The position numbers and the translations under genes were made by a program. From assembly GCF_055900595.2 (NCBI RefSeq), contig NZ_CM148325.1: DNA of 64,000 nucleotides. One strand, written 5' to 3'. The notes beneath the pieces were generated by a model, which ran no database searches, was not told the DNA's origin, and saw only the letters and a list, made by a program, of their open reading frames with translations. Below are positions 2,596-22,530 of this stretch, piece by piece (the stretch's first letter is position 1; each line of letters begins with the position of its first letter).

Positions 2596-4152
2596 ATGCT
2601 GGTGAGAACACGACATCTGGTCAGCCTGATTTCGGGAGTACTGATTCTTTCAGTATTACTGCCTGTCGGCTTAAGCATCTGGCTGGCCCATCAGCAAGTA
2701 CAAACATCGTTTATTGAAGAGCTGAATACTTATTCCTCCCGCGTCGCTATTCGGGCCAATAAGGTGGCGATACAAGGGAAAGATGCTCTGCAGGAGCTGG
2801 AAAGGTGGCAAGGTGCGGCCTGTAGCGCAGCCCATCTCATGAAAATGCGTCGGGTATCTTACAGTTATCGCTATATTCAGGAAGTGGTCTATATCGATAA
2901 CAACGTTCCCCAGTGTTCGTCTCTGGAGCATGAAAGCCCACCCGATGCCTTCCCCGAGCCAGGTAAAATTTCGAAAGATGGTTATCGGGTCTGGTTAACA
3001 TCGCATAACGATTTAGGCATTATCCGTTACATGGTCGCCATAGGAACGGCACATTATGTCGTCATGATCGACCCCGCTTCCTTTATTGATGTCATTCCCT
3101 ATAGCTCATGGCAAATTGATGCCGCCATTATTGGCAATGCCCATAATGTTGTCATAACCAGCAGCGATGAAATTGCTCAGGGAATTATTACCAGGCTACA
3201 AAAAACACCCGGTGAGCATATCGAAAATAATGGAATTATTTACGATATCCAGCCCTTCCCGGAGATGAATATTTCGATCATCACCTGGGCTTCAACGAAA
3301 ATGTTGCAGAAAGGCTGGCATCGGCAAGTCTTTATTTGGTTACCGCTCGGGTTGGTGATTGGCCTGCTGGCAGCGATGTTTGTGCTGCGTATTTTGCGCC
3401 GTATCCAGTCACCGCATCATCGGCTGCAGGATGCTATCGAAAATCGTGATATTTGCGTGCACTATCAGCCGATTGTCTCCTTAGCCAATGGCAAAATTGT
3501 CGGTGCTGAGGCACTGGCGCGCTGGCCGCAGACAGACGGTAGTTGGTTGTCACCAGATAGTTTTATTCCGCTGGCACAGCAAACGGGGCTTTCTGAGCCG
3601 TTGACGCTACTGATTATAAAAAGTGTCTTTGAAGATATGGGCGACTGGCTGCGTCAGCATCCGCAGCAGCATATTTCGATCAATCTTGAATCCACCGTGC
3701 TCACCTCGGAAAAAATCCCGCAATTGCTGCGTGAAATGATCAATCACTATCAGGTTAATCCCAGACAGATCGCGCTTGAACTCACTGAACGCGAGTTTGC
3801 CGATCCGAAAACCAGCGCCCCGATAATTTCTCGCTACCGGGAGGCGGGCCATGAAATTTATCTCGATGATTTTGGTACGGGGTATTCAAGTTTAAGCTAT
3901 TTACAGGATCTGGATGTCGACATTCTGAAGATCGATAAATCTTTCGTTGATGCGCTGGAATATAAAAATGTCACGCCACATATCATCGAAATGGCAAAAA
4001 CACTGAAACTGAAAATGGTAGCGGAGGGAATCGAAACCAGTAAACAAGAAGAGTGGCTACGCCAGCATGGCGTGCACTACGGCCAGGGCTGGCTCTATAG
4101 CAAGGCATTACCGAAAGAGGATTTCTTACGCTGGGCCGAGCAACATTTGTGA
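2596..4152 (+). CDS. pdeB: c-di-GMP phosphodiesterase PdeB (YlaB): N-terminal membrane/periplasmic sensor plus C-terminal EAL domain
   Basis: 518-aa ORF; N-terminal TM segment, second TM near residue 250, EAL-domain motifs (EALARW, DDFGTGYSSLSYL, KIDKSF). Confidence 0.88.
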   Translation: MLVRTRHLVSLISGVLILSVLLPVGLSIWLAHQQVQTSFIEELNTYSSRVAIRANKVAIQGKDALQELERWQGAACSAAHLMKMRRVSYSYRYIQEVVYIDNNVPQCSSLEHESPPDAFPEPGKISKDGYRVWLTSHNDLGIIRYMVAIGTAHYVVMIDPASFIDVIPYSSWQIDAAIIGNAHNVVITSSDEIAQGIITRLQKTPGEHIENNGIIYDIQPFPEMNISIITWASTKMLQKGWHRQVFIWLPLGLVIGLLAAMFVLRILRRIQSPHHRLQDAIENRDICVHYQPIVSLANGKIVGAEALARWPQTDGSWLSPDSFIPLAQQTGLSEPLTLLIIKSVFEDMGDWLRQHPQQHISINLESTVLTSEKIPQLLREMINHYQVNPRQIALELTEREFADPKTSAPIISRYREAGHEIYLDDFGTGYSSLSYLQDLDVDILKIDKSFVDALEYKNVTPHIIEMAKTLKLKMVAEGIETSKQEEWLRQHGVHYGQGWLYSKALPKEDFLRWAEQHL

Positions 4153-4193
4153 ATTTTTGGGCTGACGGCACGCCGCACAGCCCGTCACGCTAC

Positions 4194-4547
4194 CTATTCG
4201 TCGATGATTGACTCGAATCCGCCATAGATCATTCGCTTGCCATCAAACGGCATGGACTCGCCGAACTCCTTCATCCGTGGGTCCGACATCATCTTTTGAT
4301 TAGCAGCGTCGCGGACCTCTTTTGAAGGGTATTCAATCCAGCTAAAGACAACCTCTTCATTCTCTTCCGCTTTCACCGCCATACGAAAATCGGTCACTTT
4401 GCCATCCGGTACATCGCTGGCCCAGCATTCGACAATACGAAGCGCGCCAAACTCTTTAAACAATGGCGCGGCCTTAGCGGCCATTTCCCGATAGGCATCC
4501 TTTTTATCGGCAGGAACGGCAACCACAAAACCATCAACATACTTCAT
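4194..4547 (-). CDS. ybaA: DUF1428 family protein YbaA, 117 aa
   Basis: Complete minus-strand ORF starting MKYVDGFVVAVPADKKDAYREMA; synteny next to ffs. Confidence 0.85.
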   Translation of the reverse strand: MKYVDGFVVAVPADKKDAYREMAAKAAPLFKEFGALRIVECWASDVPDGKVTDFRMAVKAEENEEVVFSWIEYPSKEVRDAANQKMMSDPRMKEFGESMPFDGKRMIYGGFESIIDE

Positions 4548-4657
4548 CAGACATACCTCCGAAGCGTACTGCGCAGCCAGACAATTCTTGCGACGTCAGT
4601 TGTGGTTAAAGTTTAGCCATGTTGGGATTTTTTGACGAAACGGGGGGAGGCAAAAAT

Positions 4658-4771
4658 GGGTGGGGGCCCTGCCAGCTACATCCCGGCACACGCGTCATCT
4701 GCCTTGGCTGCTTCCTTCCGGACCTGACCTGGTAAACAGAGTAGCGTTGCGGGAGAACCAACAGAGCCCCC
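4658..4771 (-). ncRNA. ffs: 4.5S RNA, the signal recognition particle RNA (114 nt)
   Basis: The plus-strand sequence gggtgggggccctgccagctacatcccggcacacgcgtcatctgccttggctgcttccttccggacctgacctggtaaacagagtagcgttgcgggagaaccaacagagccccc is the exact reverse complement of E. coli 4.5S RNA (GGGGGCUCUGUUGG...CCCCCACCC). Confidence 0.97.
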
Positions 4772-4847
4772 ATTGAGAGCGTTGAGAACCAACGCGCAGG
4801 CGCATTATCACTGCTGCCCCGGCTAATTGCAACCCATTGCGTGCCAG

Positions 4848-5237
4848 ATGCTGGTTTCTTGCGCAATGCGGCTTCACTCGGGCGTTTTTCCAGATTATGC
4901 TGAAAAATTACCTCAGGAAGAAAAGATGGAAAAAGAAGATTCATTTCCCCAACGCGTCTGGCAAATCGTAGCCGCTATTCCCGAAGGCTATGTCACCACT
5001 TACGGTGATGTGGCGAAACTGGCGGGATCGCCCCGCGCCGCGCGCCAGGTGGGTGGTGTGTTAAAGCGTCTCCCGGAAGGCAGCACCTTGCCCTGGCATC
5101 GGGTGGTTAATCGCCACGGCACCATTTCGCTAACCGGACCGGATTTACAGCGTCAGCGACAGGCATTACTGGCAGAAGGTGTGATGGTGTCAGGAAGAGG
5201 GCAAATCGACTTGCAGCGTTATCGCTGGAACTACTAA
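4848..5237 (+). CDS. atl: Alkyltransferase-like DNA base-flipping protein Atl (YbaZ), 129 aa
   Basis: ATG at 4848 (MLVSCAMRLHSG...) within a frame opened by a TTG at 4827; MGMT-like fold lacking the active-site Cys; synteny. Confidence 0.85.
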   Translation: MLVSCAMRLHSGVFPDYAEKLPQEEKMEKEDSFPQRVWQIVAAIPEGYVTTYGDVAKLAGSPRAARQVGGVLKRLPEGSTLPWHRVVNRHGTISLTGPDLQRQRQALLAEGVMVSGRGQIDLQRYRWNY

Positions 5238-5267
5238 CCCTCTCCGGGCGGAGAGGGTTAACTTCGC

Positions 5268-5840
5268 TTAATATTGCGTAGGAGCTGGAACTGCCGAAGA
5301 CGGATTCACCTGGGTTGGTGAAGTTGATGGTACGGTAGTCGTTGCGCCACCGCTGGCCTGAACCGGCACGGCGGTTTGCTGCACCGGCACCAATGTCAGG
5401 TCAGCTTTAGTTCCGCCCTGGTTGATCACCGGCTGAACGGTATCGGTAATAAATACCAGTTTGTCATTCACGGTAATCGCCGCACTCAACAGAATACGCG
5501 CGTTCGGCTGAACATCTGCCGGGTTAAATGGCAGAACAAAGCTGAATGGTGACTGTTTACCTTCAGTACGCACCGCTTTTTGAGCCAGCACTTTTGACGG
5601 TGCATCGGCTAATGATGCGTCAGAAAGTGTCACGGTCAGCACGGCATCAGGCGGCAGTGCGACTTTCTGACGGATCCAGACGGTACCGGAAACATTCGGT
5701 TGCTGGATAGCAGGTTGCTGTTTTGCTGAAATAGACGTATTTGCAGCCGGTGCTGGCGTCTGAATATCCGCGCTTTTATCTGCGCAAGCCGCCAACGCAA
5801 TCGCAACCGCTAAACCACTGGCCATGTGCACGAGTTTCAT
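5268..5840 (-). CDS. ybaY: Outer-membrane lipoprotein YbaY, 190 aa
   Basis: Signal peptide with lipobox (LAACADK), Pro/Thr/Ala-rich C-terminus; synteny with tesB. Confidence 0.85.
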   Translation of the reverse strand: MKLVHMASGLAVAIALAACADKSADIQTPAPAANTSISAKQQPAIQQPNVSGTVWIRQKVALPPDAVLTVTLSDASLADAPSKVLAQKAVRTEGKQSPFSFVLPFNPADVQPNARILLSAAITVNDKLVFITDTVQPVINQGGTKADLTLVPVQQTAVPVQASGGATTTVPSTSPTQVNPSSAVPAPTQY

Positions 5841-19507: not shown

Positions 19508-19780
19508 TTAGTTTACCGCGTCTTTCAGTGCTTTACCTGCACGGAAGCTCGGTACTTTAGCGGCAGCGATGGTGATCTCTTTACCGGTCTGCGGGTTGCG
19601 GCCAGTACGGGCAGCACGCTCTTTAACGGCAAAAGTACCAAAACCTACCAGTGCTACATCATCCCCTTCTTTCAGAGATTCAGTTACGGAAGCAATAATA
19701 GCATCTAACGCACGGCCAGCCGCAGCTTTAGAGATATCAGCCCCTGCAGCAATCTTGTCGATCAATTGAGATTTATTCAC
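19508..19780 (-). CDS. hupB: DNA-binding protein HU-beta, 90 aa
   Basis: [50 protein letters not shown] recognised as HU-beta. Confidence 0.96.
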
Positions 19781-19918
19781 TCTTCTCTTCCTCTTTATAA
19801 TTTATATCGCACTTGAATCCTTCAAGGTACGAACGCGCAGCAGTTATATCAGGCCAGCCATCCCCTTACAACACCCCTTAATAAGGGCAAGCCCAATCCG
19901 CCATCTAACTTAGCGAGA

Positions 19919-19956
19919 CAAAAAAAGGCTGGCAAGTCCGAATTAGCCTGCCAGCC
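19919..19956 (-). terminator. Intrinsic terminator downstream of lon
   Basis: On the minus strand, hairpin ggctggcagg-cttgccagcc followed by a T-run, about 30 nt after the lon stop. Confidence 0.75.
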
Positions 19957-19988
19957 CTGTTTTTATTAGTGCATTTTGCGCGAGGTCA

Positions 19989-22343
19989 CTATTTTGCAGT
20001 CACAACCTGCATGCCAGACGGTTCATTTTGCAGCGCAAGAGTCAGAACTTCCTCAATGCGTTTCACAGGATGAATGTCCAGATCAGCAATTACGTTGTCA
20101 GGAATCTCTTCCAGATCGCGTTTATTTTCGAACGGAATTAACACTGTTTTAATCCCGCCGCGATGCGCTGCCAGTAGTTTTTCTTTCAAACCACCGATCG
20201 GCAGTACCTGACCACGCAGAGTGATCTCACCAGTCATTGCCACATCGGCACGAACCGGGTTACCGGTCAGGCAAGAAACCAGCGCGGTGCACATAGCAAT
20301 ACCGGCACTCGGACCATCTTTCGGCGTCGCACCTTCCGGTACGTGGACGTGGATGTCGCGTTTTTCGTAAAAATCAGGGTTGATCCCCAGTTTTTCCGCA
20401 CGCGCACGAACCACCGTTAACGCCGCCTGAATGGACTCCTGCATCACTTCGCCGAGCGAACCGGTATAGGTCAGTTTGCCTTTACCCGGAACGCACGCGG
20501 TTTCAATGGTAAGTAAGTCACCGCCCACTTCCGTCCACGCCAGACCGGTTACCTGACCGACACGGTTTTCGTTATCCGCGCGTCCATAGTCGAAACGCTG
20601 AACACCGAGATAGTCATGCAGGTTATCGCCGTTAATTTCGATATGTTTTAATGACTTATCGAGCAGTAACTGCTTAACCGCTTTGCGACACAGTTTGGAG
20701 ATTTCACGCTCCAGGCCACGCACGCCCGCCTCACGGGTGTAGTAACGAATAATGCCGATAATGGCGCTATCGTCGACGGTCAGTTCACCTTTTTTCAGTG
20801 CATTACGTTCAATCTGCTTCGGCAGCAGGTGACGTTTGGCGATGTTCAGTTTTTCATCTTCGGTATAACCGGAGAGGCGAATCACTTCCATACGATCCAG
20901 CAGTGGTGCCGGAATGTTCATGGAGTTTGACGTCGCGACAAACATCACGTCGCTAAGGTCGTAATCCACTTCCAGGTAGTGGTCGCTGAACGCTACGTTC
21001 TGCTCTGGATCCAGCACTTCAAGCAGTGCGGAAGCCGGATCGCCACGCATGTCAGAAGACATTTTGTCGATCTCATCGAGCAGGAACAGCGGGTTTTTCA
21101 CGCCCACTTTCGCCATTTTCTGGATCAATTTACCCGGCATAGAACCGATGTAAGTACGGCGGTGACCACGGATTTCCGCTTCGTCACGCACGCCGCCCAG
21201 CGCCATACGAACATATTTACGTCCGGTAGCTTTGGCGATGGACTGACCCAGGGACGTTTTACCTACCCCCGGCGGCCCAACCAGGCAGAGGATCGGTCCC
21301 TTGATTTTGTTGACACGGCTTTGAACCGCAAGATACTCAAGGATACGATCTTTAACGCGCTCCAGACCATAATGGTCGGTATCAAGGATTTCTTGCGCCT
21401 GACGCAGATCTTTTTTGACCTTGCTACGCGCATTCCACGGCACCTGCACCATCCAGTCGATATAACCACGCACCACGGTCGCTTCTGCCGACATCGGAGA
21501 CATCATTTTCAGCTTCTGCAGTTCTGCTTCCGCTTTCTCTTTTGCCTCTTTCGGCATTTTCGCCGCGTCGATTTTCCGCTTCAGGGCTTCGTTTTCGTCC
21601 GGCGCGTCGTCCATTTCACCGAGTTCTTTCTGAATAGCTTTCATTTGCTCGTTCAGATAGTACTCACGCTGGGATTTCTCCATCTGCTTTTTAACGCGGT
21701 TGCGAATGCGTTTCTCAACCTGCAGCAGATCGATTTCCGATTCCATCATTGCCATCAGATATTCCAGACGTTCGTTAACGTCGGACATCTCCAGAACGGA
21801 CTGTTTGTCAGCCAGTTTCAGCGGCATATGTGCAGCAATGGTATCCGCCAGACGCGCCGGATCGTCGATGCTATTCAGCGACGTCAGCACTTCTGGTGGA
21901 ATTTTTTTGTTCAGCTTGATGTAGCCTTCGAACTGGCTGATTGCAGTACGCACCAGCACTTCCTGTTCCCGCTCATCAATGGTCGGCGACTCCAGATACT
22001 CCGCCTTCGCAGAAAAGTGTTCGCCATTGTCAGAGAGCGCAGAAATACGCGCGCGCTGTAACCCCTCGACCAGCACTTTGACGGTGCCGTCAGGCAGTTT
22101 CAGCATCTGCAATATAGAGGCCACGGTCCCGACGGTGAAAAGATCGTTTACACCCGGCTCATCCGTTGAAGCTTCTTTCTGCGCGACCAGCATAATTTTT
22201 TTATCATGGTCCATCGCCGCTTCCAGACAACGGATAGATTTTTCCCGCCCGACAAATAAGGGGATGACCATGTGCGGATAAACCACCACATCGCGCAGCG
22301 GCAATACGGGGATTTCAATGCGTTCAGAACGCTCAGGATTCAT
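19989..22343 (-). CDS. lon: ATP-dependent protease Lon, 784 aa
   Basis: ATG at 22343 ([37 protein letters not shown]...); Walker [10 protein letters not shown]; protease-domain serine in [17 protein letters not shown]. Confidence 0.97.
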
Positions 22344-22426
22344 AGAGCTCTCTCTTAGTTTAATTTCCGCCAGGTAATCAGATGACACGACTGTGCTTCA
22401 CGCCATCTATTAACATGTACGTCAGT

Positions 22427-22453
22427 ATATGGGGATGTTTCCCCCACATTCAA
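22427..22453 (-). promoter_or_regulatory. sigma32 heat-shock promoter of lon
   Basis: Minus strand reads gcgTTGAATgtgggggaaacatCCCCATATact; matches the sigma32 -35 (CTTGAA) and -10 (CCCCATNT) elements with ~13 nt spacing, upstream of the lon start. Confidence 0.7.
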
Positions 22454-22468
22454 CGCCGAGAATAGAGG

Positions 22469-22505
22469 AAAAATTAAAGGGGAGATAAAATCCCCCCTTT
22501 TTGGT
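22469..22505 (-). terminator. Intrinsic terminator downstream of clpX
   Basis: Hairpin ggggag-ataaaa-tcccccc flanked by A/T runs on both sides, about 25 nt after the clpX stop. Confidence 0.65.
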
Positions 22506-22530
22506 TAACTAATTGTATGGGAATGGTTAA

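Follow-up and report, generated by a model that had tools for sequence, protein, structure and literature searches.

An Escherichia coli ffs (4.5S RNA) gene and two overlapping open reading frames that appear to be artefacts

Results

Organization of the ffs locus

The DNA analysed here is a 64-kb stretch (referred to below as the window), which carries ffs, the gene for 4.5S RNA, the SRP RNA, on its minus strand. The gene order around it, pdeB–ybaA–ffs–ybaZ–ybaY–tesB, is that of K-12. The features of the locus, in window coordinates, are as follows.

4194–4547, minus strand: ybaA (DUF1428), downstream neighbour of ffs; PF07237, E = 2.3e-48
4606–4944, minus strand: 112-aa open reading frame (ORF) with an ATG start, judged to be an artefact
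4652–4657, minus strand: ATTTTT tail right after the mature 3′ end, at the conservation boundary
4653–4674, minus strand: empty attB-equivalent, ffs nucleotides 98–114 plus 5 nt, TGGCAGGGCCCCCACCCATTTT
4658–4771, minus strand: ffs, mature 4.5S RNA, 114 nt; 114/114 identity with K-12 b0455
4667–4763, minus strand: core matched by Rfam RF00169 (Bacteria_small_SRP), model positions 1–97 of 97
4695–4877, minus strand: 60-aa ORF with a GTG start, judged to be an artefact
4772–4797, minus strand: 5′ leader of pre-4.5S RNA, placed from published 5′ ends; identical to K-12
4804–4832, minus strand: sigma-70-like promoter, −35 TTGCAA at 4832–4827, 17-nt spacer, −10 GATAAT at 4809–4804
4926–5237, plus strand: ybaZ/atl (alkyltransferase-like, MGMT DNA-binding domain), divergent upstream neighbour, in its 103-aa form; PF01035, E = 2.1e-27
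5268–5840, minus strand: ybaY

Read on the minus strand from 4771 to 4658, the 114 nt of ffs start with GGGGGCTCTG and end with CCCCCACCC; the RNA is also quoted by its ends as GGGGGCTCTGTTGG...GGCAGGGCCCCCACCC. The sequence equals the curated ffs ncRNA of K-12 MG1655 (b0455, NC_000913.3 476448–476561) at 114 of 114 positions, and a previous sequence-only reading, which had claimed an exact ffs on this strand, was thus right to the base. That reading had named a covariance-model search over 4658–4771 as its check, with a failure to hit as the outcome that would speak against it. The search returned RF00169 at 4667–4763 on the minus strand, aligned from end to end of the model, with 68.1 bits against a gathering threshold of 40 (E = 5.5e-13, a value that refers to the whole 64-kb window searched against 4227 families), and no such failure occurred. 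The match sits within 4658–4771 and does not extend across all of ffs because the model is shorter than the mature RNA. For the same reason, the feature annotated by PGAP spans 97 nt compared with 114 nt in K-12: the Rfam/PGAP feature is 8 nt short at the 5′ end and 9 nt short at the 3′ end. No evidence against the identification of ffs arose in the analysis.

Beyond ffs, a permissive Rfam re-scan of 4150–5300 gave just one sub-threshold match, to rnk_leader at 5235–5272 on the minus strand (22.6 bits against a gathering threshold of 50, E = 0.4), which was treated as chance. Elsewhere in the window, the small RNA sraA (RF02029) was found at 22415–22510 on the plus strand (106.7 bits, gathering threshold 56), as is usual for this part of the E. 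coli chromosome.

Comparison with K-12 and copy number across E. coli

Between 4470 and 4920, the window differs from E. coli K-12 by five SNPs (4871, 4838, 4653, 4644 and 4470), all of them outside the RNA. Nothing differs within ffs itself, and the two genomes share the 114-nt sequence, the strand relation of the gene to ybaZ and ybaA, and the leader and promoter sequences.

The 114-nt sequence occurs at one place per genome in 5424 of the 5426 complete E. coli genomes. Its identity is at least 99% in 5420 of the 5424 genomes with a match, and it is 100% in every E. coli record among the matches listed. The surrounding 1151 bp are 95–99% identical in 5405 E. coli genomes and at least 99% identical in 19, so ffs is far more conserved than its surroundings. 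Two of the 5426 complete genomes gave no ffs match, and two others carry the gene on a record labelled as a plasmid. Since ffs is essential, these four odd records probably reflect assembly or labelling problems.

Partial ffs copies are known in E. coli, in the form of 22-bp att-site duplicates beside an integrase island, and the window copy might accordingly be imagined as a pseudogene, an extra copy or a mobile-element fragment rather than a working gene. It is, however, full length, identical to K-12 and the sole copy in the window, with a conserved promoter and leader, native flanking genes and no integrase nearby, and E. coli genomes carry one ffs each (5424/5426), which leaves such a reading with a negligible probability. 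What the locus displays instead is conserved synteny, a single copy and orthology with the characterised E. coli 4.5S RNA gene.

Fold and structural conservation of the RNA

The minimum free energy fold of ffs is one long hairpin of −57 kcal/mol (z = −3.15 relative to shuffled sequences) with a GGAA tetraloop at nucleotides 53–56 and internal loops on both sides. The domain IV apex motif, GGUCAGGUCCGGAAGGAAGCAGCC, agrees with the conserved consensus residues of RF00169. An extended hairpin, a GNRA-type GGAA loop and symmetric as well as asymmetric internal loops, the structural hallmarks of small SRP RNAs, are therefore all present.

An exact-pattern scan with one genome per species yielded 29 loci, distributed over Escherichia, Salmonella, Citrobacter, Kluyvera, Pluralibacter, Intestinirhabdus and Pseudenterobacter. 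Conservation statistics were derived from the 25 orthologous loci among these 29 that have full flanks, which represent 7 genera. The proportion of variable alignment columns across the 25 loci was distributed as follows.

ffs: 7%
Leader: 20%
Promoter: 49%
Further upstream: 87%
90 nt downstream: 97%

The few substitutions within the RNA largely keep its pairing. Eight Citrobacter genomes have A:U in place of G27:C80, and Pluralibacter and Intestinirhabdus have the intermediate G:U; changes of U7 and U11 to C turn two U.G pairs into C:G; and in one Kluyvera genome the terminal G5:C5 helix has lost one G and one C, one from each strand. Across the 25 loci, one substitution lies at an unpaired position, and the single pair-breaking change, in E. 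whittamii, affects one predicted pair. We read this pattern, in a sample that is shallow (8 variable columns, closely related genera), as the signature of selection on RNA structure.

Promoter, leader and 3′ end

A promoter scan of 4150–5300 found TTGCAA-17-GATAAT as its sole site, against 0.8 sites expected by chance; the promoter is therefore called from its conservation and from published 5′ ends that fit it, and not from the scan result. The last base of the −35 hexamer varies in 1 of 25 loci, the first base of the −10 hexamer in 4 and the discriminator in 6, while the spacer and the region upstream of the promoter vary much more than the hexamers. The discriminator that follows the −10 element, GCGCCT, is G+C-rich and presumably resembles those of stable-RNA promoters. 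The −10 hexamer ends 7 nt ahead of position 4797, which corresponds to −26 relative to the mature RNA. In K-12, RNA-seq placed the main 5′ end of pre-4.5S RNA at −26, leaders of 22–24 nt have likewise been reported, and minor upstream 5′ ends lie near −127 and −153 (PMC5499578). From these data, we infer that 4832–4804 would function as the ffs promoter, with a start near 4797.

The leader contains a potential 6-bp hairpin, formed by GCGTTG (4795–4790) and CAACGC (4784–4779) around a loop at 4789–4785. All interspecies changes in the leader of the 25 loci fall within the 5-nt loop and the stem is invariant, a distribution compatible with the hairpin forming or not. According to the literature, RNase P would remove the leader of pre-4.5S RNA at 4772|4771 (PMC5499578, PMC7049720). 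A terminator-like sequence, GCTCTCAATGGGGGC, at 4780–4766 straddles this cleavage site; with one match against 1.7 expected, it was set aside as chance.

On the other side of the gene, conservation among the 25 loci is kept through ACCCATTT and beyond it drops to 97% variable columns. The U-run at 4652–4657, with the 4.5S hairpin itself as the stem, is probably an intrinsic terminator. Position 4653 within this run is T in the window, C in K-12 and C, G or A in all 25 other aligned genomes. With this T, the TTT found in K-12 beyond the ffs 3′ end becomes TTTTT; the same base closes the 22-bp att core described below.

The open reading frames over ffs

The sequence-only reading had also listed ORFs at 4606–4944 and 4695–4877 as overlapping ffs and dismissed them as artefacts. 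Both exist as described, on the same strand as ffs, and their dismissal is borne out by the lack of a Pfam match, drifting boundaries, the lack of codon periodicity, frameshifting indels and their absence from the K-12 and PGAP annotations. A Pfam scan of the 112-aa and 60-aa products returned 0 families at E ≤ 1, and the same run recovered ybaA at 2e-48 and ybaZ at 2e-27 as controls. No CDS overlapping ffs is present in the K-12 annotation or in the PGAP annotation of a strain that is identical to the window over 4150–5300. The exact 112-aa sequence is absent from ~15 billion predicted proteins, and the protein cluster of the 60-aa ORF has 2 members, one of them named hypothetical.

The exact 60-aa sequence has been deposited once, in NCBI and UniRef, as the hypothetical protein EFER_2561 of Escherichia fergusonii ATCC 35469 (CAQ90056.1, UniRef100_B7LMC3). 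This is a spurious protein record, the product of one annotation pipeline.

The 112-aa ORF begins antisense inside ybaZ, upstream of the ffs promoter and of every reported ffs 5′ end. Its frame is open over ffs in all 25 loci, since the conserved RNA itself contains no stop there, while the start moves from −178 to +11 and the stop from +130 to beyond +204 (relative to ffs nucleotide 1); the ORF measures only 59 aa in E. albertii and 53 aa in Salmonella. Indels of lengths not divisible by three occur in its downstream part even within Escherichia: +2 in E. albertii, +1 in E. whittamii and −1 in two further genomes of the genus. Other E. coli are among the genomes with such indels in the ORF flanks. 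The 60-aa ORF stops at a UGA at ffs nucleotides 75–77, and its GTG start is kept within Escherichia only, the ORF being absent or shortened elsewhere among the 25 loci.

In the ORF flanks outside ffs, 29/31, 26/31 and 27/31 columns vary at codon positions 1, 2 and 3, compared with 10/16, 5/15 and 15/15 for the control codons of ybaZ in the same alignment. Neither ORF displays the third-position excess of a protein-coding gene, and in neither did we find a conserved frame, start and stop or homology to a protein family.

A dual-function locus, in which a longer transcript with an upstream start is also translated into a young, Escherichia-specific protein of 60 aa (or 112 aa), was weighed against these data. 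Apart from MOD1-EC7003, the Escherichia loci retain an intact 60-aa ORF with an unchanged start, yet at ~2% divergence such intactness is expected regardless. The minor K-12 5′ ends at about −127 and −153 (PMC5499578) would cover its GTG at −106, and the ORF was once called as a protein (EFER_2561); still, both ORFs are missing from the curated K-12 annotation and match no family, and the 112-aa ORF, which begins upstream of all reported 5′ ends, is frameshifted by indels within Escherichia itself. The start of the 60-aa ORF is lost in most Citrobacter and Kluyvera loci, the ORF measures just 45 aa in Salmonella, and its variable columns (10/15, 12/15 and 12/14 by codon position) again lack a third-position excess. 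Moreover, more than half of it falls within the very stable hairpin of an abundant, processed RNA. We therefore consider translation of either ORF very improbable.

The reading of both ORFs as artefacts is the one supported by this comparison. They would exist because a constrained, G+C-rich RNA happens to have no stops in two frames. In this they resemble the spurious ORF calls known over rRNA, tRNA, RNase P RNA and SRP RNA: they occur in sense orientation over a conserved, G+C-rich RNA, they have no homologues of known function, and there is one deposit as a ‘hypothetical protein’; we see no difference from such cases. Overall, it is nearly certain that 4658–4771 on the minus strand is ffs, the single-copy essential 4.5S RNA gene, and that the same-strand 112-aa and 60-aa ORFs are not genes.

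The start codon of the neighbouring ybaZ/atl is annotated at 4848 (129 aa) in K-12 and at 4926 (103 aa) by PGAP. The 78-nt extension of the K-12 annotation (4848–4925, plus strand) has 24/26, 22/26 and 21/26 variable columns by codon position, with no periodicity. In other genera it contains indels whose lengths are not divisible by three. It also overlaps the sequence immediately upstream of the ffs promoter, and the Pfam domain starts at residue 7 of the 103-aa form. The start at 4926 is better supported than that at 4848.

Integrase islands at the ffs 3′ end in other strains

The genes ybaA, ffs and ybaZ do not lie in one piece in ~67 E. coli genomes. In FCI56, homology to the window breaks off precisely where the mature RNA ends, after ...CCCCCACCCA; ffs is followed there by a site-specific integrase gene and then IS1, and ybaA and pdeB are missing. 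The same foreign sequence lies downstream of ffs in Citrobacter werkmanii. In E. coli XJ34 (locus L033), a 9,856-bp island separates ffs from ybaA. Its two boundaries carry the 22-bp sequence TGGCAGGGCCCCCACCCATTTC as a perfect direct repeat, equal to ffs nucleotides 98–114 plus 5 nt (copies at L033 11345–11366 and 21201–21222). A tyrosine integrase gene (PF00589) of this island adjoins ffs, and the island also carries a resolvase-family gene. Further loci behind the observation of an integrase next to ffs are L032 (10834–12005), L003, L019 and L026.

The island integrase was found in 62 of 5426 E. coli genomes (~1%). The same integrase, with 99.4% amino acid identity, adjoins ffs in Citrobacter werkmanii, and relatives with ~46% identity adjoin ffs in Pluralibacter and Salmonella enterica arizonae. 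As at known attB sites, the 3′ end of the target is repeated directly, an integrase gene stands at the boundary, and both kinds of allele exist, empty in the window and K-12 and occupied in XJ34. No second copy of the ffs 3′ end that might represent an att remnant was detected in the window, even with 3 mismatches allowed. With a single core copy, the site in the window is empty, with no island scar.

The interior of the XJ34 island contains an inverted, complete attP-like junction, in which both island arms are joined at the 22-bp core (L033 19739–19993). Perfect inverted repeats of 139 nt surround the integrase gene and others of 138 nt surround 8.3 kb of cargo, with arms at L033 11345–11482 and 21084–21222 (together with 19739–19993). 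The attP-like duplication is seen in most genomes with this integrase. The junction and the inverted repeats may reflect integrase-driven invertible modules.

The arrangement is reminiscent of the islands and prophages at the 3′ ends of tRNA and tmRNA genes. The ffs 3′ end is duplicated in E. coli as a 22-bp direct repeat, an integrase gene lies beside ffs, and ffs would be intact again after integration by the predicted integrase. It differs in that the site of the window is empty and that the E. coli island holds an internal, inverted attP-like junction, which to our knowledge has not been described in classic tRNA-gene islands. In 2025, the attB of phage phiEf11 was placed in ffs of Enterococcus faecalis and described as novel (PMC12540744). 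The open-access part of the literature that was searched gave no account of integrase islands at ffs in E. coli. As a tentative proposal, which we consider possible rather than probable, 4653–4674 may work as an attB for a family of tyrosine-integrase islands that target ffs across the Enterobacteriaceae.

Discussion

Domain IV of SRP RNA binds the M domain of Ffh, and the RNA scaffolds the GTPase cycle of Ffh and FtsY. For the 4.5S RNA of K-12, which is identical in sequence to that of the window, Ffh binding, co-translational targeting and RNase P processing are established (PMC5499578, PMC7049720). From this literature we infer that ffs in the window shares with K-12 its promoter, its processing by RNase P, its termination and its binding of Ffh. 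The gene would be transcribed from the sigma-70 promoter at 4832–4804 as a precursor with a 5′ leader of ~22–26 nt, and cleavage by RNase P at 4772|4771 would then remove this leader. The 3′ end probably arises by termination at the U-run behind the long hairpin of the RNA itself, followed by exonucleolytic trimming. In the mature hairpin, domain IV, with its GGAA tetraloop and two internal loops, would bind Ffh, and the 4.5S RNA would then scaffold the Ffh–FtsY GTPase cycle by which ribosomes making membrane proteins are targeted.

The ffs of the window is an already known, textbook gene and no new biology arises from it. The integration-site observation concerns other strains, and the window itself shows nothing unusual. 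The practical value of the analysis is in annotation: ffs should be annotated as the 114-nt mature RNA, and the ORFs lying over it should be suppressed, a real concern given that public protein databases already list the 60-aa ORF as EFER_2561. The apparent use of ffs for integration, in ~1% of E. coli genomes, is of modest interest for the cataloguing of mobile elements and for the choice of integrase/attB pairs.
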